From Oscillospiraceae bacterium (GTDB lineage Bacteria > Bacillota > Clostridia > Oscillospirales > Ruminococcaceae): a stretch of DNA of 64,000 nucleotides. A model generated the notes under the pieces. That model was given only the letters and a program-made list of their open reading frames with translations, had not been told where the DNA came from and did no database searches. Position 1 is the first letter of the stretch, and each line of letters opens with the position of its first letter. Of this stretch, positions 4,930 to 26,272 are shown piece after piece. Position numbers and translations under genes: made by a program. The stretch is from assembly GCA_017468365.1 (NCBI GenBank), contig JAFUIS010000019.1, positions 11,009-75,008 on the forward strand, given 5' to 3'.

Positions 4930-5216
4930 TATGAACGTAGATTATGTTAAAATTGAGTAAAATTGTTTGACGGAACGACGAGAAATCCGAAGACAACAAC
5001 GGTACCAATTTTCCTACACTCAAAAATTTGTAATTCTAAGATACTCTCAACGCCGATTAAAATTCTCGTTACGTCGTTGAGAACCCACAAGATTGGTTCC
5101 GGGAGATTCTCCTCTCCTTGTTGCTATGCGTGTAAAGTGTCAATTCGGATCATTGAAGTCTGTACACGCAATAGTGTATGGGCTTTTTATTTTTGGTTCG
5201 AGTTGGAGGTGATACA

Positions 5217-10007: not shown

Positions 10008-11186
10008 ATGGAAAAGAAGAATATTTTCAACTCAAAGATTTTTAAAATCATCGCAAAAATCGTTCTTACTCTGTTTGCACTGGTTTTTACATATTTCTTC
10101 TTGGTTTTTGTTCTTGTTTTTTCTGCAATAGCAGAATTTGATATTGCGTTCATATATATCGCAACGCTTCTTGTTCCGGCGCTTTTGATCCCGCTTATCT
10201 GGGCAAAAAAGAGAAAAAGGGTTCTTATTGTCTGGTCCGTTCTTTTTGCGGCTTTTATCATAGCTTTGTGCGTAGATGTCGGAATAAAACGGTATAACAA
10301 AAGTATAACGATAAACACTACGCCGAATATAAATGTTCACGAATATCTTCCATTTAAAGAAGATTCCAAAATTGCCGTTCTTGAAAAGGAGGCAAGCCTT
10401 AAACTTTCAGAAAATCTTCCGATAGTTGACGGAGCAGCGGCTGTTTTTCCGGTTTATTCCGCTTTTGTAAACGCGGTATATCCCGAAAGCACAGAACTTT
10501 GGGACGGGGTTTTTGAATATAACAATACCGTCGGCGGATATAAACTTTTGGGAGAAAAAGAAACCGACATATTCTTTGGGGCATATCCTTCGGAAGAACA
10601 GATTTTTGCGGCAGAAGAAAAAGGAACGAAATTCGTTTATACTCCTATAGGATACGATGCTTTTGTTTTCTTCGTTCATAAAGATAATCCCATTGATAAT
10701 CTTACAACCGAGCAGGTTCAGGCAATTTATTCGGGCGAAATAACGAATTGGAACGAAGTGGGCGGAAACAACGAAAAAATTGCGGCTTTTCAGCGCAATG
10801 AAGGAAGCGGAAGCCAGAGCATGCTTATCCGTTTTATGGACGGAAAAGAGATAATGGATGCTCCGAGTGAAATGGTGAACGACCTTATGTCCGGAATAGT
10901 TGAAAAGGTTTCGGATTATAAAAGCAAATCAAATTCCATCGGTTTTTCTTTCAGATATTACCTTGAAGGAATAATTCAAAATCCGGACATTAAGATCCTC
11001 AGCATTGACGGAGTTGCGCCGACTCCGGAAAACATCAAAAACGGAACCTATCCCATAACCGGGCCGCTTTATGCAGTAACTTTTGAAGGAAACGACAACG
11101 AAAACGTTGAAAAACTTCTTGAATGGATACTTTCCGACGAGGGACAGTATATTATTGAAAAGACCGGATATGTAGGTATAAAATAA
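10008..11186 (+). CDS. membrane-anchored PstS-like (type 2 periplasmic binding fold) substrate-binding protein
   Basis: ATG 10008 after AAGGAGG; N-terminal ~90 aa hydrophobic; PstS-like core (PIGYDAFVFFVHKDNPIDNLTTEQVQAIYSGEITNWNEVGG, QRNEGSGSQ). Confidence 0.7.
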   Translation: MEKKNIFNSKIFKIIAKIVLTLFALVFTYFFLVFVLVFSAIAEFDIAFIYIATLLVPALLIPLIWAKKRKRVLIVWSVLFAAFIIALCVDVGIKRYNKSITINTTPNINVHEYLPFKEDSKIAVLEKEASLKLSENLPIVDGAAAVFPVYSAFVNAVYPESTELWDGVFEYNNTVGGYKLLGEKETDIFFGAYPSEEQIFAAEEKGTKFVYTPIGYDAFVFFVHKDNPIDNLTTEQVQAIYSGEITNWNEVGGNNEKIAAFQRNEGSGSQSMLIRFMDGKEIMDAPSEMVNDLMSGIVEKVSDYKSKSNSIGFSFRYYLEGIIQNPDIKILSIDGVAPTPENIKNGTYPITGPLYAVTFEGNDNENVEKLLEWILSDEGQYIIEKTGYVGIK

Positions 11187-11187
11187 A

Positions 11188-11218
11188 AACGGAGGGCATT
11201 TAGCCCTCCGTTTTTATT
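11188..11218 (+). terminator. Rho-independent terminator after the PstS-like gene
   Basis: AACGGAGGGC-attta-GCCCTCCGTT then TTTT. Confidence 0.85.
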
Positions 11219-11259
11219 TCAACAAATATTGTTTTGTTAGGAAAAAGTCTGTGTGCAAT

Positions 11260-11337
11260 TTTGAGCACCGTCAAAAGACGTTTTTTGTTTACCGAGATGC
11301 TCAAAAAGGAAATGTGGATGATATAACGGTGCTCAAA
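11260..11337. repeat. 12-bp perfect inverted repeat bracketing the dapA 3' end
   Basis: TTTGAGCACCGT (11260-11271) and ACGGTGCTCAAA (11326-11337); the second copy overlaps the dapA stop codon. Confidence 0.6.
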
Positions 11338-17432: not shown

Positions 17433-17500
17433 TTGCAAGCATTGAAATTATGTGCTATACTAACCATGTTGAAATGTATTATTTTCAGGAGGATAACATA

Positions 17501-17659
17501 ATGGAACACATTAAAACTGTTAACAACGCAAACCTTAAAGAATCTTGCGCAAAAGGCGGCTGCGGCGAATGCCAGGCTTCCTGCCAGTCTGCATGCAAAA
17601 CTTCCTGCACTGTTGCAAACCAGGAATGCGAAAACGAATCCCGCAAAGGCAACAAATAA
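17501..17659 (+). CDS. scfA: SCIFF (six-cysteines-in-forty-five) ribosomal peptide precursor
   Basis: ATG 17501 after AGGAGG; MEHIKTVNNANLKESCAKGGCGECQASCQSACKTSCTVANQEC; directly upstream of a radical SAM/SPASM gene. Confidence 0.85.
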   Translation: MEHIKTVNNANLKESCAKGGCGECQASCQSACKTSCTVANQECENESRKGNK

Positions 17660-17728
17660 TTATTATTGATTATTAAATTGCAGGTGTGCCAAACACGGCG
17701 CACCTGCCGTTTTTTTGGAGTAATTTAA

Positions 17729-19105
17729 ATGGTACATACTTTTTATCAAAACGGTTATTATATTGCTCTTGATGTAAACTCCGGCGCGGTACATGTTCTT
17801 GACAAGCTTGCTTTCGATCTTCTCAATAAGTTTGAGGACAAGCTTCCCGAAGAATGTCCCGCGGAGTTTGTAAAAGAGCTTTCCGGTGAATATCCCGAAC
17901 AGGATATTCTTGAAGTTTATTCTGAACTTCTCGGCCTTCAGAAAGCGGGCCAGCTTTTCAGCGAAGACGATTATGAGCGTTTTACCGATATGATGAAGGG
18001 CGCACCCATCAAATCCATGTGCCTTCACATTTCTCACGACTGCAACCTTCGCTGCAAATATTGCTTTGCTTCCACCGGCGACTTCGGCAAAGGCAGAAAA
18101 CTCATGCCCGTTGAAACCGGTAAAAAAGCGATCGATTTTCTTCTTACCCATTCCGGAAACCGCCACAACCTTGAACTTGACTTCTTCGGCGGCGAGCCTC
18201 TTATGAACTGGGACGCAGTAAAAGAGATCGTTGACTATGCAAGAAGCAAAGAAGAAGAATATAACAAGAAATTCCGCTTCACCGTTACCACCAACGGCGT
18301 TCTTCTTAATGATGACAGCATCGACTACATCAATAAAGAGATGAAAAACGTTGTTCTTTCTCTTGACGGAAGAAAGTGCGTAAACGACGCTATGCGCCTT
18401 ACCGTAAACGGAAAAGGAAGCTATGATATCTTTGTTCCCAAGTTCCAGAAGCTCGTTGAAAAACGTCTTCAGGGCGAAAACAAGGAATATTATGCACGCG
18501 GAACCTTTACCAAGAACAACCTTGACTTTGCAAAAGACGTTTATCATATTGCCGACGATCTCGGCTTTGATCAGCTGAGTGTTGAGCCTGTTATCGCAGA
18601 TCCCAGCGAGCCTTATGCTATCACCGAGGAAGATCTTCCAACCATTTTTGCCGAGTATGAAAAACTCGCGGTTGAAATGGTAAGAAGAAAGAAAGAAGAG
18701 GGCGGATGCTTTAACTTCTTCCACTTCATGATCGACCTTGACCAGGGTCCTTGTGCTATAAAGCGCCTTCGCGGATGCGGATGCGGCAACGAATACGTTT
18801 CCGTAACCCCCGATGGCGATATCTATCCCTGCCACCAGTTCGTAGGCAACGACGAATGGAAAATGGGCAATCTCGACGACGAAACCCTTGATATCGAGAT
18901 GAAAGATAAATTTGCGTGCTCGAATATCTATACCAAAGAAGGCTGCCGCGATTGCTGGGCAAGATTCTATTGCTCCGGCGGATGCAACGCAAACAACTAC
19001 AGTTTCAATAAGGATATCAACAAACCCGTTAAGATCTCCTGCGAACTTGAAAGAAAACGCGTTGAATGTGCTATCATGATAAAAGTTGCAATGGCAGACA
19101 AATAA
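17729..19105 (+). CDS. scfB: SCIFF radical SAM/SPASM maturase (thioether-forming)
   Basis: CNLRCKYC radical SAM cluster motif; Cys-rich SPASM C-terminus (CGCGNEY...CHQF, CRDCWARFYCSGGC). Confidence 0.9.
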   Translation: MVHTFYQNGYYIALDVNSGAVHVLDKLAFDLLNKFEDKLPEECPAEFVKELSGEYPEQDILEVYSELLGLQKAGQLFSEDDYERFTDMMKGAPIKSMCLHISHDCNLRCKYCFASTGDFGKGRKLMPVETGKKAIDFLLTHSGNRHNLELDFFGGEPLMNWDAVKEIVDYARSKEEEYNKKFRFTVTTNGVLLNDDSIDYINKEMKNVVLSLDGRKCVNDAMRLTVNGKGSYDIFVPKFQKLVEKRLQGENKEYYARGTFTKNNLDFAKDVYHIADDLGFDQLSVEPVIADPSEPYAITEEDLPTIFAEYEKLAVEMVRRKKEEGGCFNFFHFMIDLDQGPCAIKRLRGCGCGNEYVSVTPDGDIYPCHQFVGNDEWKMGNLDDETLDIEMKDKFACSNIYTKEGCRDCWARFYCSGGCNANNYSFNKDINKPVKISCELERKRVECAIMIKVAMADK

Positions 19106-19114
19106 AAAAACAAA

Positions 19115-19141
19115 AGCTCCGGAATATCCGGAGCTTTTTTA
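19115..19141 (+). terminator. Rho-independent terminator after scfB
   Basis: AGCTCCGG-aatat-CCGGAGCT then TTTTTT. Confidence 0.85.
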
Positions 19142-19190
19142 TTATATAATGATAGGGAAGTGGGAAAGGGAAGAGGGGAAGACCATAAAA

Positions 19191-19775
19191 ATGGACATTA
19201 AAAATATGCTGAACGTTGTTTTGAAAAACAGGATACTGATTTTTTGCTGTGCGGTGCTCATTGGAGGAAATGTTTTCGGAACGTGCGTGCTCAAAATTCT
19301 TCCGACTGAAGTTTGCAAAAATCTTTTCATTATAATTTCGCATAACGAAGGTGGTTTTATAAGCGAATTCATGAACAGATTCTGTTTTCCGGCAATAATT
19401 ATAACTGCGGTTTATTTTGCCGGATTCAGCATTTTCGGAAGATTTTCGGCACTCTTTTCAGTGTTTACATATGGAATTTATTATTCGTTTATAAATGGGA
19501 TAAATTATATGTTTTGCGGTGCGGAATATTTTGTAAAAAACGTGATTTCATATTTCAGTTTGCTTCTTTATTTCGGATTTTTTCTTATTCTTATGTCTGA
19601 AAATGCATTTTATTCGTCAAAAATATTATCGGATTCCGTAAAAATACAAAATGTCGAAAAACCGCATTTTAAAGCCAAAAACTTAACTGTAAAGTATATT
19701 AGTTTTACAGTGATTTTTGCGGTTTTTTCAGCATTTTCTTCTTATATTTCAATTATTCTTCAGCCGGTTCTTTAG
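19191..19775 (+). CDS. polytopic membrane protein, possibly SpoIIM-like
   Basis: Start at MDIKNML; ~5 hydrophobic segments in 194 aa. The SpoIIM idea rests only on size, topology and adjacency to a Xer-type gene. Confidence 0.35.
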   Translation: MDIKNMLNVVLKNRILIFCCAVLIGGNVFGTCVLKILPTEVCKNLFIIISHNEGGFISEFMNRFCFPAIIITAVYFAGFSIFGRFSALFSVFTYGIYYSFINGINYMFCGAEYFVKNVISYFSLLLYFGFFLILMSENAFYSSKILSDSVKIQNVEKPHFKAKNLTVKYISFTVIFAVFSAFSSYISIILQPVL

Positions 19776-20763
19776 GTTTTCTTTTGGGCGGCTTAACGTT
19801 TTTGAGGGGAGATTTGTTGGAAGCATCTTCGATTTGTTTGTTGCTTACATGGGTGTAAATTTCTGTGGTCGAAAGACTTTCGTGACCCAAAAGTTCTTTG
19901 AGCACGCGGATATCGACTCCGGCGTCCTGATAAAGTAAAGTCGCGGCAGTATGGCGAAGTTTATGAGGCGAAATTCCCATTCCGTCAAGCCCGGCTTCTT
20001 TCAGACAATGTTCCACGATTTGTTCCACACCTCGGGTGCTTATCCTTTTGCCGAAACGGTTCAAAAAAAGCGCGTTTTTATCGACTCTTTTGACTTTTTC
20101 GCCGGAATTGAGCACCGAAAGATAGCTTTCAATGGCATTCAGGCAGGAATTATTGAGATAAACAATGCGTTCTTTGTTGCCTTTACCAAGAAGTTTAAGC
20201 TGATTATCGCGTATATCATGAACATTGATTCCGCAAAGTTCCGAAACACGCATTCCACAGTTCAAAAACAGCGTAATTATGCAAAAATCTCGCTCTGTAA
20301 AGTTGGTTTCAACATGTGAAAGCAGTTCAAGCGACTGTTCAAGCGTAAGATATTTTGGAAGTGCTTTTTTAAGCTTTGGAGTTTCCAGATTGAGCATCGG
20401 GTTTTCCGAAAGCTTTCCGCTGGATACCGTAAGATATTTATAAAAGGATCTTATTGCGGAAACTTTTCTCGAACGCGCTTTGGCATCATTGTCATGGTTG
20501 CGCTGAAATTCCGAAAGAAATCTCATAGCATCGGTTCTTGTGGCGTTTTTTATCAAATCGAATGTTGCCGAACGTATTTTGATATCCTTATAATCAACGT
20601 CATCGGAAACCAGTCCGTTATCGATCATAAGAAATCTTATGAACGATCTTAAGTCAACGTAATAACCGTCGACGGTTCTGGGAGAGCGTCCTTTGATGGT
20701 TTCCATATAGAACAGAAAATCCTGAAGGAACTCCGGACAATCGTTAAGATGGTCTTTATTCAT
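19753..20763 (-). CDS. tyrosine site-specific recombinase, XerC/XerD family, with Lys/Pro-rich C-terminal tail
   Basis: 336 aa; SAM-like N-domain; catalytic signatures GMRVSEL, HKLRHTAAT, LLGHESLSTTEIYTH; tail KNVKPPKRKPKEPAEE; ATG 26 nt from the palindromic site. Confidence 0.9.
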   Translation of the reverse strand: MNKDHLNDCPEFLQDFLFYMETIKGRSPRTVDGYYVDLRSFIRFLMIDNGLVSDDVDYKDIKIRSATFDLIKNATRTDAMRFLSEFQRNHDNDAKARSRKVSAIRSFYKYLTVSSGKLSENPMLNLETPKLKKALPKYLTLEQSLELLSHVETNFTERDFCIITLFLNCGMRVSELCGINVHDIRDNQLKLLGKGNKERIVYLNNSCLNAIESYLSVLNSGEKVKRVDKNALFLNRFGKRISTRGVEQIVEHCLKEAGLDGMGISPHKLRHTAATLLYQDAGVDIRVLKELLGHESLSTTEIYTHVSNKQIEDASNKSPLKNVKPPKRKPKEPAEE

Positions 20764-20789
20764 AAAAATCCTCCTTTTCTTCTCCCCTT

Positions 20790-20819
20790 AACTTCGCTAA
20801 ATTTCTATTTAGCGAAATT
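20790..20819 (+). repeat. attL: dif-like recombination site
   Basis: AACTTCGCTAAA-TTTCTA-TTTAGCGAAATT; arms are inverted repeats with one mismatch; shares a 15-nt identical block with attR. Confidence 0.8.
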
Positions 20820-20849
20820 GACACTTACGTTTTAAGGGGGTACACTCGT

Positions 20850-22148
20850 ATGAAAAAATTTGTTGCTTTGGCTTTGTCTTTGGTGCTTGTTTTTTCTATG
20901 GGTGTACCCTCTTTTGGTGCAACATCTGTTTCTATTGATGAATCCGGTGTTTTTGCTCCGGATAAATCTAACACAAATTACTCTACAAATACTGTTTTTA
21001 CGAATTTAAACATTCTTGAAGCGATTCGCGTTCTTGCGGATAGTTCTGCTTATGATATTCATCAGCTTAAAGTTCTTTTTTCTACTGGCTCTTATAAAAC
21101 CGTTGCTGACGCATTAAATCTTTATTTTAGTGGTGCAGTCGCTGATGTTAATTCCTATGGTAACGGTAATCTTGGCGATATGATGAGCACTTTTGCTTAT
21201 TTGGGTAGAGAGATTCAAGGAATGAATTATTTTACTCCCTACTCCGGTGGCGAAGCAACTTCTCTTGATGAAGCATTAAACAAGAATCTTTTATATATTC
21301 AAAATCAGCTTCGAGTTATTTCGGACAGTATGGGTGCAACTTCTGCAAGTTCCGGTTTAATGTCCGGTTGGACTTTGTCCGGTGTTCCCTCTCCAGAGGG
21401 CTACGATTCTTCTTGGTATCGTCGTATTTTGATGAATCTTTATTCTTTCCGTCTTGACTTTGCACGTCTTTACGACGGAACTTGGGCGGATTCTACTAAT
21501 TATGCTGATAGTTTCTTTTATCAAACATATTTACAAAATAAAATTCAATCTGATAATGTAGAAGGCCTTTTAAATGGTTGGTCTGCTACATCTACTGCGT
21601 ATCCGGACGGATATGAAAACTCTTGGTATCGTGCTATTAATCAAAGATTATATGCTTTTCAAAGTTCTTGGGTTAATATAATGAATCAAGTTATGATTCC
21701 ACGTGTAAATTCTATTCAAAGTCATCTCTTTGATATCTTAGATGATACTGATATGTTGCAACAAGTTCTTGCCGATGAAGATGACCTTGCGATGAAAGAT
21801 TCTCTTGCATCTTCAAAAACCGAAGTTGTTGACTTTGTCGGAAATGGTATTACTTCCTCGAATGGTTCTTCCTTTTCGCTTATGTCCGGTATAACTGACG
21901 GAATCGGCTTTGCTACTGATTTCAATGAGTTTTTTTCAATGCCTGATATCGGTTTAGGTGATATATTTAAAGTATTTGATAATACTTCGGAATCCCTTTC
22001 GTGGTTTACGGAAGAAACTGCTTCAAATATAGATACCGTTCCGGCTACATATTCGAGAGAATCGAATCCGCAGACGGAAATTGTCACTTCGTATTATGAG
22101 GATAGAAAATCCGAATTCAACGATATGTGGGGTGATATAGTTGGTTGA
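20850..22148 (+). CDS. secreted phage protein with internal duplicated module (candidate adsorption or host-recognition protein)
   Basis: Signal peptide MKKFVALALSLVLVFSMGVPSFGA; repeated GW..S..P(E/D)GY(D/E)xSWYR..(N/L)..LY.F module. Confidence 0.6.
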   Translation: MKKFVALALSLVLVFSMGVPSFGATSVSIDESGVFAPDKSNTNYSTNTVFTNLNILEAIRVLADSSAYDIHQLKVLFSTGSYKTVADALNLYFSGAVADVNSYGNGNLGDMMSTFAYLGREIQGMNYFTPYSGGEATSLDEALNKNLLYIQNQLRVISDSMGATSASSGLMSGWTLSGVPSPEGYDSSWYRRILMNLYSFRLDFARLYDGTWADSTNYADSFFYQTYLQNKIQSDNVEGLLNGWSATSTAYPDGYENSWYRAINQRLYAFQSSWVNIMNQVMIPRVNSIQSHLFDILDDTDMLQQVLADEDDLAMKDSLASSKTEVVDFVGNGITSSNGSSFSLMSGITDGIGFATDFNEFFSMPDIGLGDIFKVFDNTSESLSWFTEETASNIDTVPATYSRESNPQTEIVTSYYEDRKSEFNDMWGDIVG

Positions 22149-22287
22149 CCCTATAATCAATGCTGTTGAAGTTTTTCTCGTTTTTTATGAGAATCTCCCT
22201 CAACCGATTATTGCTTTGTTTAATCTTGTTTTGTTTCTTATGGTGATTTTCTACATTATAAGAACAGTAGAAAAGGCGGGTTCGTGA
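22141..22287 (+). CDS. small hydrophobic phage protein (48 aa, TTG start; minor coat candidate)
   Basis: Hand-translated; GGGGTG RBS; one TM (IIALFNLVLFLMVIFYII); overlaps neighbours at both ends. Confidence 0.35.
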   Translation: MVDPIINAVEVFLVFYENLPQPIIALFNLVLFLMVIFYIIRTVEKAGS

Positions 22288-22430
22288 TGTTGTTTAATAT
22301 TTTTGATATTCTTTTCGGTCTTTTTCCTGCTTGGTTTGCTACATTTTTGATTATTGCTTTTTTTGTTACGGTTATAGTCTTGCTTATTCGTCTTGTTGTT
22401 TGGATTATTGAAATTATTCCCGGATTCTAA
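22287..22430 (+). CDS. small hydrophobic phage protein (47 aa)
   Basis: ATG overlaps the previous stop (TGATG); MLFNIFDILFGLFPAWFATFLIIAFFVTVIVLLIRLVVWIIEIIPGF. Confidence 0.5.
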   Translation: MLFNIFDILFGLFPAWFATFLIIAFFVTVIVLLIRLVVWIIEIIPGF

Positions 22431-22442
22431 AGGGGTGATTAT

Positions 22443-22634
22443 ATGACCGCTGACGGTCTTTCATTCATACAATGGTTTTTTCCTGCTATGTGGTCTTTTT
22501 TTACAAGTTGGCATATTCCCGGAACTGGTGTCAGCCCTGCCGGGTGGCTCTTGTTCTTGCTTCTTGCAGGAATTGTTTTGAAAATTGTATTTCATATTCT
22601 ACACTCCGGTTGGCTTTCCGGTGGAGGTAATTAA
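22443..22634 (+). CDS. small membrane phage protein (63 aa)
   Basis: Two hydrophobic segments; GGGG RBS; stop abuts the next ATG. Confidence 0.55.
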   Translation: MTADGLSFIQWFFPAMWSFFTSWHIPGTGVSPAGWLLFLLLAGIVLKIVFHILHSGWLSGGGN

Positions 22635-23228
22635 ATGAAGATTATATGTGTTTTGCTTTCAATCGTCTTTCTCTTTTCCTTTTCGGTAACAGCTTTCGCC
22701 GAAGTTGCATTGGACGAACTCGGCGAAGTTGTTCCGGTTGAAGATAGTACCCAGAGCGAAGAATCTGGCGAAGCTACTTCCGGAAATGAGTATCTCGATA
22801 TGGTTTTAAATAATATGCAGAATGATATTGACGATTTACAGTCTGATGTTGAGGTGCTTCAAGATGATGTATCTGCGATTTCTGAATCAGATGTTGTATC
22901 TGATTCGACAGTTGAAAATTCTACTTCCGAAGAACCGGAAGAAATCAACCCGGAATTAGGTATTGATGAAAGTACGCCAACGGCTGTAAATGTTTATGCT
23001 TTAAATCCGATAACTCCGGAAGATACAACGGGTTTGAAGTCCGTTCTTCTTTCTCTTATCGGTGATTATGACGCTATTGTAGTTGAATACGAATACACGG
23101 GTAGTAATAGCTATACAAACTATCTTCGTGAAGTTCAACCGGATTATGTTTGGTTGTGCTCTGCTGCAATATTCCTTGTTATAATCTATTCTGTGTTTAG
23201 GCTTGGGGGTGCTCTGTTCCGTGGATAA
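22635..23228 (+). CDS. acidic secreted phage protein with C-terminal membrane anchor (pIII-like minor coat candidate)
   Basis: Signal peptide MKIICVLLSIVFLFSFSVTAFA, D/E/S-rich middle, C-terminal TM VWLCSAAIFLVIIYSVF plus basic end. Confidence 0.55.
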   Translation: MKIICVLLSIVFLFSFSVTAFAEVALDELGEVVPVEDSTQSEESGEATSGNEYLDMVLNNMQNDIDDLQSDVEVLQDDVSAISESDVVSDSTVENSTSEEPEEINPELGIDESTPTAVNVYALNPITPEDTTGLKSVLLSLIGDYDAIVVEYEYTGSNSYTNYLREVQPDYVWLCSAAIFLVIIYSVFRLGGALFRG

Positions 23229-23229
23229 T

Positions 23230-23364
23230 ATGCAAGCTTTTGCCCTTTGGCTTTTGGAAGAAATTCCGAATTTTCTCTTGTCTGAACCGATATGTTACTT
23301 TGTCGGTATCGCTATTTTGTTCTTGGTAATAAAGCTGTTCGGCTCTATTATAAAAATTCATTAA
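23230..23364 (+). CDS. small hydrophobic phage protein (44 aa)
   Basis: Hand-translated MQAFALWLLEEIPNFLLSEPICYFVGIAILFLVIKLFGSIIKIH; starts 1 nt after the previous stop. Confidence 0.5.
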   Translation: MQAFALWLLEEIPNFLLSEPICYFVGIAILFLVIKLFGSIIKIH

Positions 23365-23379
23365 AAGGAGTTTTAATTT

Positions 23380-23559
23380 ATGGAAGGAAGTGTAACTGTG
23401 GCAACTATTCTCGAATCTGCAGGACTTATCGTCACCGAGGCTCTCTCTTGGCTCACCGAAACCGTTACCACCGTCGTAGGCTCTCCGCTTCTTCTTATGT
23501 TCGTAATCCTCGGACTTGTCGGAACTGGCGTCGGTCTTATGCGTAGAATCATTGGCTGA
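23380..23559 (+). CDS. major coat protein candidate (pVIII-like, 59 aa)
   Basis: AAGGAG RBS; amphipathic acidic N-part, TM PLLLMFVILGLVGTGVGL, basic C-end MRRIIG; strong terminator follows, as after gene VIII in Ff phages. Confidence 0.7.
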   Translation: MEGSVTVATILESAGLIVTEALSWLTETVTTVVGSPLLLMFVILGLVGTGVGLMRRIIG

Positions 23560-23569
23560 TGATTCCGTG

Positions 23570-23607
23570 GGGAGTGCACACGCTTTGCGTGATCGCACTC
23601 CCTTTTT
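23570..23607 (+). terminator. strong terminator after the coat gene
   Basis: GGGAGTGC ... GCACTCCC with nested CACGC/GCGTG pairing, then TTTTT. Confidence 0.8.
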
Positions 23608-23637
23608 CGCTATTTTGTATTTAGGTGGTGCACACTT

Positions 23638-24360
23638 TTGTATATTGTCTTTTTTCTACTTCTGTTTTTTGGCACAATATTTGCCGTTCTTGCTTATCGT
23701 TTCCGTAATCCTTTCAAGCTGTATTATATTTTCGGAAAAAAGGGCTCGGGAAAATCTCTGTTTATGGTTAAGTTTATGTTGAGGTATCTTCGTAAAGGTT
23801 GGACGGTTTACACCGATATTTCCGATGTAAATATTCCCGGTGTTCGTCTTATCAATGCGAAAGACCTCGACACTTTCCGTCCGGAAGAAAATTCCGTTAT
23901 ATTTCTTGATGAAGTCGGAATTACTTTCGATAATCGTAAATTCAAAACATTCACGGACGGTATGCGTGATTATTTCAAGTTTCAGCGTAAATATAAATGC
24001 GTTGTTTATATGAACTCCCAAAGCTTTGATGTTGATAAAAAAATTCGTGACCTTATAGACCGTTTTTACCTCGCAACAAGCCTTGGTAATGTTATTTCAA
24101 TATACCGACCTATAAATCGTAAGGTTGCCCTCGTAGAAGCTTCTGCGCAGGGTGAGAGCCGTGTTGCTGATAACCTTGTATTTGCTCCGATATGGGAATG
24201 GAAATTCATCTTTATGCCGAACTATTTCAAATGGTTCGACAGCTTCGAAGCTCCATACCGTGAACTTATCCCATTCAAAGAAATCCCCGGTAAACTTCCG
24301 AAAGACCCTACACCGAAGCAGGCTCTAAAATTGATTCATAAAGGACTGAAAAAGAAATGA
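23638..24360 (+). CDS. Zot/pI-like P-loop morphogenesis ATPase
   Basis: TTG start after GGTGG; Walker A GKKGSGKS, Walker B VIFLDEVG, then QRKYKCVVYMNSQSFDVDKKIRDLI resembling the Zot-family core. Confidence 0.75.
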   Translation: MYIVFFLLLFFGTIFAVLAYRFRNPFKLYYIFGKKGSGKSLFMVKFMLRYLRKGWTVYTDISDVNIPGVRLINAKDLDTFRPEENSVIFLDEVGITFDNRKFKTFTDGMRDYFKFQRKYKCVVYMNSQSFDVDKKIRDLIDRFYLATSLGNVISIYRPINRKVALVEASAQGESRVADNLVFAPIWEWKFIFMPNYFKWFDSFEAPYRELIPFKEIPGKLPKDPTPKQALKLIHKGLKKK

Positions 24361-24539
24361 TTAAACTATGGCTTGGAAATAAACTCCGCTTTCTCTCGCA
24401 CCTTGGAATGTTCCTCTGTGGCTTGTGCTCGCTCATTGCACCGTGGTATATTGCGCTTGTAATCTTCGTGCTTGCTTTCGTACTCGACTATGTCGCATTT
24501 TCTGCGGTAGCGCAGTATTTTACAACCGATGAGGGGTAA
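24357..24539 (+). CDS. small two-TM phage protein coupled to the ATPase gene
   Basis: ATGA overlap with the Zot-like gene; 60 aa, hydrophobic. Confidence 0.55.
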   Translation: MIKLWLGNKLRFLSHLGMFLCGLCSLIAPWYIALVIFVLAFVLDYVAFSAVAQYFTTDEG

Positions 24540-24564
24540 AGGGGGCTTTGCCCTCTTTATTCGC

Positions 24565-24638
24565 CTTTGAGCGCCGTGCTCAAAGTTCCGTGCTTGTCAT
24601 ATGCTCAACACATATCCCGTGCTCAAGCTGTGCGTGCT
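24565..24638 (+). repeat. hairpin plus iteron-like CCGTGCT repeats in the phage noncoding region
   Basis: CTTTGAGC-gccgt-GCTCAAAG (24565-24585); CCGTGCT at 24574, 24588 and 24617; GCGTGCT at 24632. Confidence 0.6.
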
Positions 24639-24660
24639 GTTACCTTATTCAGCATAAAAA

Positions 24661-24700
24661 GGCAGGATCACCGCCATAAATATGGCGGTGCCTGCCTTTT
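24661..24700. terminator. bidirectional terminator between the phage structural module and the RHH gene
   Basis: GGCAGG-at-CACCGCCATA-aa-TATGGCGGTG-CCTGCC flanked by A5 and T4. Confidence 0.85.
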
Positions 24701-24701
24701 C

Positions 24702-24842
24702 TTATTCTTGTTCCTCAAGATACTTTTTGATAATTTGTGCTATTAAATTAGATACGCTTCTGCCCTCTTTCTGTACCTGCTCTTTTAACTTCTCTGTAAT
24801 TTCGTCATCTAAAAATGTTGATATTCTGTTTTTGTCCGTCAT
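24702..24842 (-). CDS. ribbon-helix-helix (CopG/Arc-like) repressor, 46 aa
   Basis: Start at MTDKNRISTFLDDEITEKLKEQVQKEGRSVSNLIAQIIKKYLEEQE; RHH pattern (beta strand RISTFLD plus two helices); the only minus-strand gene in the element. Confidence 0.7.
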   Translation of the reverse strand: MTDKNRISTFLDDEITEKLKEQVQKEGRSVSNLIAQIIKKYLEEQE

Positions 24843-24879
24843 ATAAATGTTCCTTTCTTGCTGAATTTGCAAATTTCGG

Positions 24880-24908
24880 TTGACTTGGTGGTACAACCGT
24901 AGTACAAT
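24880..24908 (+). promoter_or_regulatory. candidate promoter of the phage replication module
   Basis: TTGACT, 17-nt spacer, TACAAT. Confidence 0.55.
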
Positions 24909-24914
24909 GCAGTT

Positions 24915-24940
24915 GTTCAAAAGTTGTCCTACTTTTGAAC
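24915..24940. promoter_or_regulatory. operator-like perfect inverted repeat in the divergent promoter region
   Basis: GTTCAAAAGT-tgtcct-ACTTTTGAAC, just downstream of the -10 element. Confidence 0.55.
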
Positions 24941-25033
24941 CCTCATATTATAGCCTGGGGAGTTGTGACCGGAGAATCCCTCTCCCCTCGCCACCTTATG
25001 AGGAAATAAAACTTGACGAAATGAGGTAAAATT

Positions 25034-25288
25034 ATGGACAGAAAGATTACTATCGTTGGTATTGAAGAATACGACTTCAAAACTCGTGAGAATGAAACTC
25101 TCGAAATGGCAAACATTCACTATCAGTATCAGAATCAGCGAGTTGAAGGCATAGCCTGCGGTCGTGTGACTGTATCTAAAAAAATGCTTGACCGTTATAA
25201 TATTCAGCTTAATGCAGAATATATCGGAGCGTTTTATCTTGACGCTAATAAACGCGAAAAACTTGCGGCACTTTTCGAGGAGGCTTGA
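25034..25288 (+). CDS. phage protein, 84 aa (position and size compatible with an ssDNA-binding pV-like protein; unproven)
   Basis: GAGG RBS; first gene of the replication module. Confidence 0.4.
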   Translation: MDRKITIVGIEEYDFKTRENETLEMANIHYQYQNQRVEGIACGRVTVSKKMLDRYNIQLNAEYIGAFYLDANKREKLAALFEEA

Positions 25289-25290
25289 AA

Positions 25291-25497
25291 GTGATTACTA
25301 CTTATGATTCCCTTCATACTATGAACGATAATATTTATGATGTTATTTACGATTCTGAACGTAAAGCCTTTGGTGTTATCGTAGCTTGGGACGATTTCAC
25401 CTGTGAACCACAGATTAAATATTGTGATTCTCTCGATAATGCAAAGCGCCTTGCTATTGGCTTTGTAATTGCTGAAAATAATATTTTTAATTTTTAA
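25291..25497 (+). CDS. phage hypothetical protein (~68 aa)
   Basis: GTG 25291 lies 8 nt after GAGGAGG; the track's TTG at 25285 is the alternative start. Confidence 0.45.
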   Translation: MITTYDSLHTMNDNIYDVIYDSERKAFGVIVAWDDFTCEPQIKYCDSLDNAKRLAIGFVIAENNIFNF

Positions 25498-25526
25498 TCC
25501 GCACGGACTACGAGAATGTGCGGATT
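25496..25526 (+). promoter_or_regulatory. candidate rolling-circle double-strand origin hairpin with nick-site-like loop
   Basis: AATCCGCAC-ggACTACGAgaat-GTGCGGATT, 40 nt upstream of rep. Confidence 0.6.
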
Positions 25527-25566
25527 GTAGCATGTAGCAAAATTAAATAAATTGAGGTTTTGATTT

Positions 25567-26151
25567 ATGAGTAGAAATTCAAATTTCAACCCGGAAACAT
25601 CAAAACGTCGTGTCTTTTTTATTGAACTTTATCCCGATTCTTCAACATATAATTGTGATGAACTTTTAGCTGTTGCTCGTTCTTTTCCCGAATATGCTTT
25701 GATTTGTCACGATAAAGATGTTAATTCGGTTACTGGGGAAGTTAAAAAACCGCATTATCATATTGTAGTGCGTGTTAAGCCTTCCCTGCTTTCTACGGTG
25801 GCGAATAAGTTTCCCGGTTTGGAAACTCGCTTTATTGAGGTAACACACGAATTTAGGTGGTGTTTACGCTATCTAATTCACTTGGACGATATAACAAAAT
25901 ATCAATATCCGCACGAAGCTGTTGAAACTAACATTTCGGATATCGAATCCTATTGGCGTATTTCTTCGGAATGGTCGCTTGTTCGTGAAATGATTCAGCT
26001 TCGGTTGACTGGTTCAACATGGTATCAAGTGTTTGACTTTTGCGGAAAAAATCAATGTTATGATGTCTTTCGCCGTAATATAGCGATAATCAAACTCGTT
26101 GCCGGAGAATCCGACTGCACCGATTATGGTGAATGGGATGAAACAATATGA
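25567..26151 (+). CDS. HUH rolling-circle replication initiator, pMV158 RepB (Rep_2)-like
   Basis: ICHDKDV...KKPHYHIVVRV (HUH motif) and CLRYLIHLDDITKYQY (catalytic Tyr motif); 194 aa. Confidence 0.8.
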   Translation: MSRNSNFNPETSKRRVFFIELYPDSSTYNCDELLAVARSFPEYALICHDKDVNSVTGEVKKPHYHIVVRVKPSLLSTVANKFPGLETRFIEVTHEFRWCLRYLIHLDDITKYQYPHEAVETNISDIESYWRISSEWSLVREMIQLRLTGSTWYQVFDFCGKNQCYDVFRRNIAIIKLVAGESDCTDYGEWDETI

Positions 26152-26181
26152 ACTTCGGAAAAGTTTCTATTTAGCGAAGTT
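26151..26181 (+). repeat. attR: dif-like recombination site
   Basis: AACTTCGGAAAAG-TTTCTA-TTTAGCGAAGTT; first base overlaps the rep stop codon. Confidence 0.8.
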
Positions 26182-26272
26182 GGCTCTATGGAAATTATAG
26201 CACAAAAAGCCTCTTCCCGTCAAGTGTTTGCATCAAAAAAAGCCTGATTTTATCAGGCCTTTTTGCTTATTG

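Follow-up and report, generated by a model that had tools for sequence, protein, structure and literature searches.

In Vibrio cholerae, the filamentous phages CTXphi, VGJphi and TLCphi have no integrase and integrate at dif by means of the host Xer recombination system, which makes them integrative mobile elements exploiting Xer (IMEX). Systems that rely on a single recombinase have also been described. In XerS/difSL, one recombinase gene lies beside a 31-bp site near the terminus, and this site has unequal arms and an 11-bp centre (PMC5357621); the archaeal XerA acts independently of FtsK (PMC5357621). The single-recombinase XerL/dif system of Legionellales is reported to have been found through LME-1, an element with a dif mimic, the integration of which leaves a modified downstream site that modulates stability; in Coxiella, the xerL copy is reported to be plasmid-borne (PMC9765430). 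Here, we analyse a locus in 64,000 nucleotides of an Oscillospiraceae bacterium (assembly GCA_017468365.1, contig JAFUIS010000019.1, positions 11,009 to 75,008; this whole stretch is termed the window), where the gene for a tyrosine recombinase adjoins a 28-bp palindromic site into which the genome of an inovirus has inserted. The reading that we consider probable is that this gene encodes a chromosomal Xer-type recombinase with a cognate dif-like palindrome at the replication terminus and that this pair is exploited by IMEX phages.

A search of the open literature found the XerS, XerH, XerA and XerL precedents and no description of such a recombinase–site module in Oscillospirales or Clostridia, in keeping with an earlier suggestion, made from the letters of the window alone (hereafter, the original prediction), that the pair might be undescribed; a large survey of inoviruses discusses neither Xer nor dif. 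The features on which the reading turns are as follows:

19753 to 20763, minus strand: host-encoded, Xer-like tyrosine recombinase gene (336-aa open reading frame (ORF), ATG start at 20761–20763)
20791 to 20818, no strand assigned: attL, the dif-like site ACTTCGCTAAA-TTTCTA-TTTAGCGAAAT (28 bp; left arm and centre from the host, right arm phage-derived)
20808 to 26169, plus strand: inserted inovirus genome (IMEX) of 5362 bp without a recombinase gene (in-silico excision matches the empty allele L083)
26152 to 26180, no strand assigned: attR, the degenerate copy ACTTCGGAAAA-G-TTTCTA-TTTAGCGAAGT (left arm phage-derived, right arm from the host)

The Recombinase and Its Described Relatives

The recombinase has the Pfam domains Phage_integrase (PF00589, 134 bits) and an N-terminal SAM-like domain (PF02899), and its catalytic residues R172, K197, H267, R270, H294 and Y303 are invariant in an alignment of 11 orthologues. 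With the NCBIfam models, it scores 233 bits for the XerC equivalog (TIGR02224, cut-off 335), 216 bits for the XerD equivalog (TIGR02225, cut-off 330), 197 bits for archaeal XerA (NF040815, cut-off 220), which is the nearest miss of the curated cut-offs, and 149 bits for XerS (NF003462, cut-off 267), to which it aligns well only over the C-terminal half. The nearest solved structures are those of XerA (4a8e, 120 bits) and XerD (1a0p, 110 bits), with just 59 bits for XerH (5jjv). On these scores, the protein belongs to the Xer group broadly, yet to none of the named equivalogs XerC, XerD, XerA and XerS; it would work like the systems described, but it falls outside these families and that of XerH. 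No other tyrosine recombinase was found at E ≤ 10 when the orthologue profile was run against the 308 stop-to-stop ORFs of at least 70 aa in the window, which, along with the coordinates, agrees with the original prediction of a sole tyrosine recombinase outside the repeats with its ATG 26 nt from the arm (the first base of which had been placed at 20790).

The original prediction had also likened the locus to XerS/difSL and XerH/difH, and both the linkage of gene to site and the terminus-like position (see below) bear this out. As in XerS/difSL, a single chromosomal recombinase gene immediately adjoins its site to form one module near the terminus; the inner bases of the arms read ...AAAA beside the centre, and the phage-derived arm ACTTCGGAAAA resembles the left arm of difSL, TTTCCGAAAA. 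The differences are that the protein here has 336 rather than 356 residues and fails the XerS model and that the site has 28 bp, a 6-bp centre and symmetric arms, whereas difSL has 31 bp, an 11-bp centre and unequal arms. The XerH/difH system of Helicobacter and Campylobacter likewise has one recombinase, and its site, which is near the gene, is almost palindromic with arms that end in AAAA (AGTTATGAAAA; PMC5357621), but the system belongs to another phylum, its recombinase has only the low similarity given above, and the arms here are exactly symmetric. Where the original prediction did not hold was in its view that the site does not resemble dif: the architecture is 11-6-11, and the inner AAA/TTT is like the ...AAAA arms of difSL and difH (PMC5357621).

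The archaeal XerA/dif system offers the best structural match (4a8e), a single recombinase and a 28-bp dif, but the host here is bacterial. The likeness to the published description of XerL and LME-1 is one of history, in that a single-recombinase system is again discovered via a mobile element mimicking dif; the phylum is different, and the element here is a filamentous phage (PMC9765430). With respect to the Vibrio IMEX phages, finally, the window phage is like the VGJ and TLC types in that its attP is double-stranded and one arm of it is degenerate; in two relatives (L090 and L092), the attP region has a predicted single-stranded fold of the CTXphi type. In contrast to Vibrio, the host is a gut anaerobe of Gram-positive lineage, there is apparently one recombinase instead of XerC plus XerD, and the insertion severs the recombinase gene from its own promoter.

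Co-Variation of the Recombinase and the Site

The orthologues studied were the 80 best loci (L001–L080) from one scan of species-representative genomes of Oscillospirales, with 46–94% identity; their hosts are Oscillospiraceae, Ruminococcaceae, Acutalibacteraceae, Faecalibacterium, Gemmiger and relatives. The genes sit among housekeeping genes such as radA and that of the SCIFF maturase. The criterion for a site was an inverted repeat of 11-6-11 layout, within 1.7 kb upstream, that has AAA-N6-TTT as its core and at least 10/11 complementary positions between its arms. By this measure, the site is present upstream of the gene in 53 of the 80 loci (with 11/11 complementarity in 47 of them), mostly at a distance of 8–150 nt; relaxing the threshold to at least 9/11 gives 72 matches in 1.09 Mb as opposed to 6 after shuffling. 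The synteny of gene and palindrome that the original prediction had proposed to examine is thus found across relatives, and the site co-varies with the protein.

This co-variation is evident in the arms, which exist in 15 distinct sequences (e.g., ATTTCGCTAAA, ATTATACAAAA, ACTCAACAAAA and ATTGCGCAAAA) that track the protein tree and in which both arms are always altered together. In 47 species, the arms are exact reverse complements over 11–13 nt or more, and some palindromes reach arms of 18–24 nt. Since the arms always change together and palindromy is kept, one protein would recognise both of them, and this co-divergence of protein and site is the main argument for a single-recombinase system.

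Another explanation is that the recombinase is half of a conventional pair of the XerC/XerD type with its partner encoded elsewhere and that the site, a conventional dif, is beside one of the two genes by chance. The best matches among the hidden Markov models are indeed XerC and XerD, the NCBI annotation names the orthologues XerC, and the 11-6-11 layout of the site is canonical. However, the protein falls far short of the equivalog cut-offs for XerC and XerD, none of the assemblies is represented among the 80 best loci by a second paralogue of at least 46% identity, and two proteins would not enforce the perfect complementarity and the concerted change of the arms described above; a two-recombinase system therefore seems to us unlikely.

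Core-genome synteny is kept in 80 species, and neither half-site has a third copy in the window; the recombinase is thus host-encoded, and its gene is chromosomal, vertically inherited and outside the mobile element. The absence of a third copy extends to the region left of 19753, where the original prediction had thought that one might betray a larger element containing the recombinase; nor does the protein, which is Xer-like and in conserved chromosomal synteny, resemble a prophage integrase.

Insertion into the Site

That the phage inserted precisely is shown by L083, a contig from another sample of the same species that has a 100%-identical recombinase and an empty site: removing positions 20808–26169 (5362 bp) from the window in silico yields the L083 junction exactly, with two mismatches over 3898 nt. 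The empty site in L083 lies between the promoter of the recombinase gene and the ribosome-binding site (RBS) region and is a perfect palindrome, AACTTCGCTAAAT-AGAA-ATTTAGCGAAGTT; the same sequence is found in L001 and L002, the recombinases of which are 94% and 92% identical. In the window, the 24-nt palindrome has a single occurrence, and none of 100 shuffles contains it. By comparison with the empty allele, the phage inserted precisely and conservatively, by a crossover inside the site and without target duplication. Eight metagenomic contigs carry the 100%-identical recombinase; L083 among them has the empty site and L082 the phage junction, and natural populations of the window species hold both occupied and empty alleles. 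Three metagenome contigs (L081, L084 and L086) terminate exactly inside the site, which is to be expected when the two alleles coexist within a sample; the samples taken to have both are ERZ28653980, ERZ28653984 and SRR12529336.

The arms of attL are complementary at 10 of 11 positions, and its phage-derived arm is the consensus arm of sister clades; attL is probably still a working site. On the other side, attR, with a left arm identical to that of the host at 9 of 11 positions and a spacer that is one base longer, reads as a site left defective by the integration. The attP of the window phage, which was deduced from attL and attR and is supported by relatives from a protein collection, is ACTTCGGAAAA-G-TTTCTA-TTTAGCGAAAT: 17 bases (the centre and one arm) are identical to the site, and the other arm matches at 9/11. 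A scan of IMG/VR for the exact attP pattern found no free form of this phage, and a Zot-based scan of IMG/VR found no relatives. Because attP mimics the site and no other recombinase is present, we infer that the host Xer catalyses the integration. The precise insertion within the site, the empty allele and the attP mimic agree with the original prediction of an integrative element exploiting Xer.

One could instead imagine that the Rep of the phage (an HUH endonuclease) or host repair inserts the element at a palindrome prone to form a cruciform and that the adjacency of the recombinase gene is incidental. A Rep_OBD gene of the phage is directly beside attR, and perfect palindromes can extrude as cruciforms. 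Such a mechanism has nonetheless to contend with the conservative nature of the insertion, with the extent to which attP mimics the site, and with the fact that phages diverged to 65% identity in Zot keep host-matched mimics of the arms, including one with a predicted single-stranded fold (see below), so that we regard integration by a route other than Xer as very improbable.

A Terminus-Like Position

Self-trained gene calls were made on the 53 site-bearing loci, and the analyses of position drew on 50–53 loci. The proportion of coding on the recombinase strand is 87% upstream of the site and 23% downstream of the gene (where 77% is on the opposite strand). The mean GC skew is +0.073 upstream of the site and −0.067 downstream of the gene and is higher upstream in 35 of the 36 loci with at least 4 kb on both sides; in non-genic DNA, the values are +0.061 and −0.070. 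A regression of third-codon-position skew with a coding-strand term per locus gives a replication term of +0.036 (bootstrap 0.015–0.058). The flanking genes are varied, with 39–55 families per position among about 70 loci and blocks that sometimes lie on the other side, and this diversity means that the convergence is not merely inherited local synteny. In the window, the genes left of the recombinase gene are 12 on the plus and 4 on the minus strand and those right of the prophage 3 on the plus and 35 on the minus strand, and the neighbours are housekeeping genes (those of Lon, IleRS, LigA, Dxs, RecN, TyrRS, XseA and RadA). With genes converging on the site in their orientation and GC skew changing sign there, a position at the replication terminus is likely.

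The conserved block downstream of the recombinase includes the genes for a SCIFF peptide, which has six cysteines among its forty-five residues, and for its radical-SAM/SPASM maturase; in the window, the pair is at 17450–19105, past a membrane-protein gene at 19086–19775. An identification of this membrane protein as SpoIIM, which would echo the xerD-spoIIM synteny of Bacillus, was dropped, as Pfam gave no match.

The Leader and the Promoter

Three further features concern the expression of the recombinase:

20764 to 20790, minus strand: remaining 5' leader of the recombinase gene (Shine-Dalgarno AAGGAGG at 20770–20776; G-rich flank TAAGGGGAG at 20782–20790)
26194 to 26223, minus strand: native recombinase promoter, TTGACG-18-TATAAT plus a TG upstream (agrees with the consensus at 11 of 12 positions; the prophage now lies between it and the gene)
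26242 to 26258, no strand assigned: terminator-like hairpin closing the upstream DUF6873 gene (from the sequence)

In the empty alleles L083, L001 and L002, the native promoter is 13 nt upstream of the site; in the occupied window, it lies beyond attR, 5.4 kb from the recombinase gene, which confirms the earlier idea that the insertion has replaced the region upstream with phage DNA. At the left end of the phage, the sole promoter-like match facing the recombinase is TTAACA-16-TAAAAT (21124–21151, minus strand), about 360 nt upstream of the ATG. As the DUF6873 gene is closed by the hairpin at 26242–26258, its terminator is not the palindromic site.

The position of the site in this leader raises the question of whether the palindrome is mainly an operator or a 5'-leader hairpin, with the true dimer-resolution site elsewhere and the module an accessory or domesticated integrase that phages target. 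In the clade of the window, the site does separate the −10 box from the RBS; of 46 loci, 12 have a promoter-like element with its end −2 to +17 nt ahead of the site, where 1.6 would be expected, and the arms of 18–24 nt that some palindromes reach exceed what a recombinase needs. An operator, though, does not need the switch of orientation and skew that occurs at the site in 35 of 36 loci, many loci have an intact unit that is inverted or 0.3–1.6 kb from the gene, and a crossover within the centre is documented. We judge a mainly regulatory palindrome to be distinctly unlikely; the roles of operator and dif are, however, not mutually exclusive and can coexist.

A Conserved G-Rich Flank

When the sites are oriented by their A-rich centre (consensus T-R-A-A-W-A), a G-rich motif, T-N-A-GGG-N-AG(G), is found directly 3' of the 3' arm in 41 of the 53 loci and on the opposite side in 2. 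In about 15 loci, the unit is turned round with respect to the gene and the motif has no ORF after it, yet its place is unchanged. A role as the Shine-Dalgarno sequence of the recombinase was rejected: because the flank is kept where it faces away from the gene and precedes no ORF, it is not simply a Shine-Dalgarno sequence. The flank could make an otherwise symmetric site directional. It resembles the KOPS (FtsK-orienting polar sequences) of E. coli, GGGNAGGG; GGGGAG is strongly strand-skewed in the flanks, but ribosome-binding sites and gene orientation are confounders of this skew, and no conclusion was drawn as to a KOPS-like replichore signal.

Inverted units (centre plus flank) occur in L004, L007, L011, L013, L019, L021, L025, L035, L041, L042, L044, L062 and L066. 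They are mostly 59–107 nt from the gene (917 nt in L062), compared with 8–57 nt otherwise, and some of the loci additionally have the radA block on the opposite side of the gene. A simple inversion model fails to explain the flipped units, as the flank arrangements are mixed and no single rearrangement covers them all.

The original prediction had pointed to an 8-bp inverted repeat, CCCCTTAA (20784–20791) and TTAAGGGG (20832–20839), that might be coincidental. Its coordinates are correct and, as its phage half serves the first gene of the phage as RBS, the repeat as such is probably a matter of chance; what has to be amended is the meaning of the host half, which is the conserved G-rich flank, the recombinase having its own Shine-Dalgarno sequence, AAGGAGG.

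A Proposed Mechanism and the Points against It

If the gene and the site are indeed a chromosomal Xer-type recombinase and its dif, four copies of the one recombinase would occupy a pair of sister sites, each with two identical arms, and strand exchange across the asymmetric 6-bp centre (T-R-A-A-W-A) would resolve chromosome dimers. The recombinase might also repress its own gene, since the site is at the start of the recombinase transcript. The inovirus would bring in a double-stranded mimic of the site, consisting of one good arm, an identical centre and a degenerate arm with a spacer longer by 1 nt; the host recombinase would then integrate it, giving a near-perfect attL on the side of the gene and, at the opposite end, a crippled attR.

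A more elaborate version, which we put forward only as a tentative possibility, is that the Oscillospirales module combines a palindromic dif, an A-rich asymmetric centre, an orientation-locked flank, an autoregulatory leader and a landing pad for gut inoviruses of about 5 kb. The flank would here provide the asymmetry that two recombinases provide in XerCD, perhaps by placing FtsK/SpoIIIE or an accessory factor, and entering inoviruses, with double-stranded or folded single-stranded mimics of dif, would rewire the expression of the host recombinase.

Several observations weigh against a chromosomal dif module at the terminus. Firstly, 27 of the 80 loci do not reach 10/11 (degenerate copies are present in about seven of these), and a clade of nine (L024, L026, L030, L032, L033, L038, L051, L054 and L060) is without an adjacent site; in this lineage, the site may have shifted elsewhere. 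Secondly, GC skew in the window taken alone has no clear change of sign, and a decomposition of third-codon-position composition (GC3) in the window alone, where there are few minority-strand genes, yields a replication term that does not change sign between the two sides. In CP181263.1, moreover, the only complete chromosome among the loci, the gene is at 1.86 of 2.53 Mb and so not opposite position 1, which may not be the origin. Thirdly, the survey was of locus stretches, and a second Xer paralogue or a canonical dif may be present elsewhere in the genome. Finally, catalysis, dimer resolution, the stoichiometry of a single recombinase, control by FtsK and autoregulation are all proposals made from sequence. 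As a separate observation, several loci of the nine-locus clade are also without the convergent gene orientation.

The Inovirus and Its Relatives at the Junction

The genes recognised within the prophage are:

20850 to 22148 and 22635 to 23228: signal-peptide (secreted) proteins (ORF calls)
22141 to 22634 and 23380 to 23559: small hydrophobic ORFs (ORF calls)
23638 to 24360: Zot/pI morphogenesis ATPase (PF05707, phrog_197, phrog_1675)
24702 to 24920, minus strand: ribbon-helix-helix (RHH) regulator (Pfam)
25567 to 26151: rolling-circle Rep (Rep_OBD), adjoining attR (Pfam)

The pI/Zot ATPase, the rolling-circle Rep, the small genome and several small membrane proteins mark the element as a small inovirus. 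Its Pfam and phage-family matches are confined to Zot/pI, Rep_OBD and RHH, and neither these nor the orthologue profile reveal a recombinase among its ORFs, so the claim that the phage encodes no integrase stands. By its lack of a recombinase of its own, its position at a dif-like site of the host, its hybrid flanking sites and its dif-mimicking attP, the element classes as an IMEX.

Zot homologues number more than 1300, many on contigs of 5.0–5.9 kb, and one such relative has a terminal overlap. Prophages with 99%, 80% and 65% identity in Zot are present at the same recombinase/DUF6873 junction in related hosts, and this junction is used recurrently by at least three distinct inoviruses. In L090 (the relative with 65% identity; positions 11185–11260) and in L092 (a circle of 5556 nt; positions 5100–5180), the att region contains two pairs of inverted arm-like sequences in the layout a-TACCAG-b-loop-b'-14 nt-a'. 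As single-stranded DNA, it is predicted to form a forked hairpin, the two stems of which mimic the arms of dif (z = −3.8 and −4.9, respectively), and in our reading the L090 junctions fit an exchange in which only one strand pair took part, adjoining arm a'.

Other insertions have been found at or near the site. A third prophage variant at the junction, L089 (3213–7475), has a perfect attL, no recognisable attR and no Rep gene and is probably a decaying or satellite element. In L022 (3066–7490), an unrelated high-GC element of 4.4 kb, which encodes a 329-aa Rep, a sigma-like protein and a mini tyrosine recombinase of 172 aa, lies between two copies of the site, one of which has a 9-nt spacer. 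An insert of about 440 bp separates a full site from a lone half-site in L065 (7445–7915), and in two loci the site is about 1.6 kb upstream of the recombinase gene, with genes for Hsp20 and a membrane protein (L012) or a UDP-glucose-dehydrogenase-like gene (L018) in between; the inserts in these three loci may be cargo captured at the site.

Significance

Faecalibacterium, Ruminococcus and numerous dominant commensals of the gut belong to the Oscillospirales, and we found no open-access description of chromosome-dimer resolution in this order; filamentous phages of Gram-positive anaerobes are, to our knowledge, poorly known. A defined recombinase/site pair would serve as a marker of the terminus in the assembly of metagenome-assembled genomes (MAGs) and in coverage-based estimates of growth rate, and it would be a candidate tool for site-specific integration in bacteria that are hard to engineer. 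The coexistence of occupied and empty alleles would explain why contigs break at this locus, and MAG assemblies would then fragment systematically at the terminus. How one protein achieves an ordered strand exchange on a perfectly symmetric site would be a mechanistic question for the Xer field, on which the asymmetric flank gives a handle, and the IMEX paradigm would be extended past Proteobacteria to a family of gut inoviruses.

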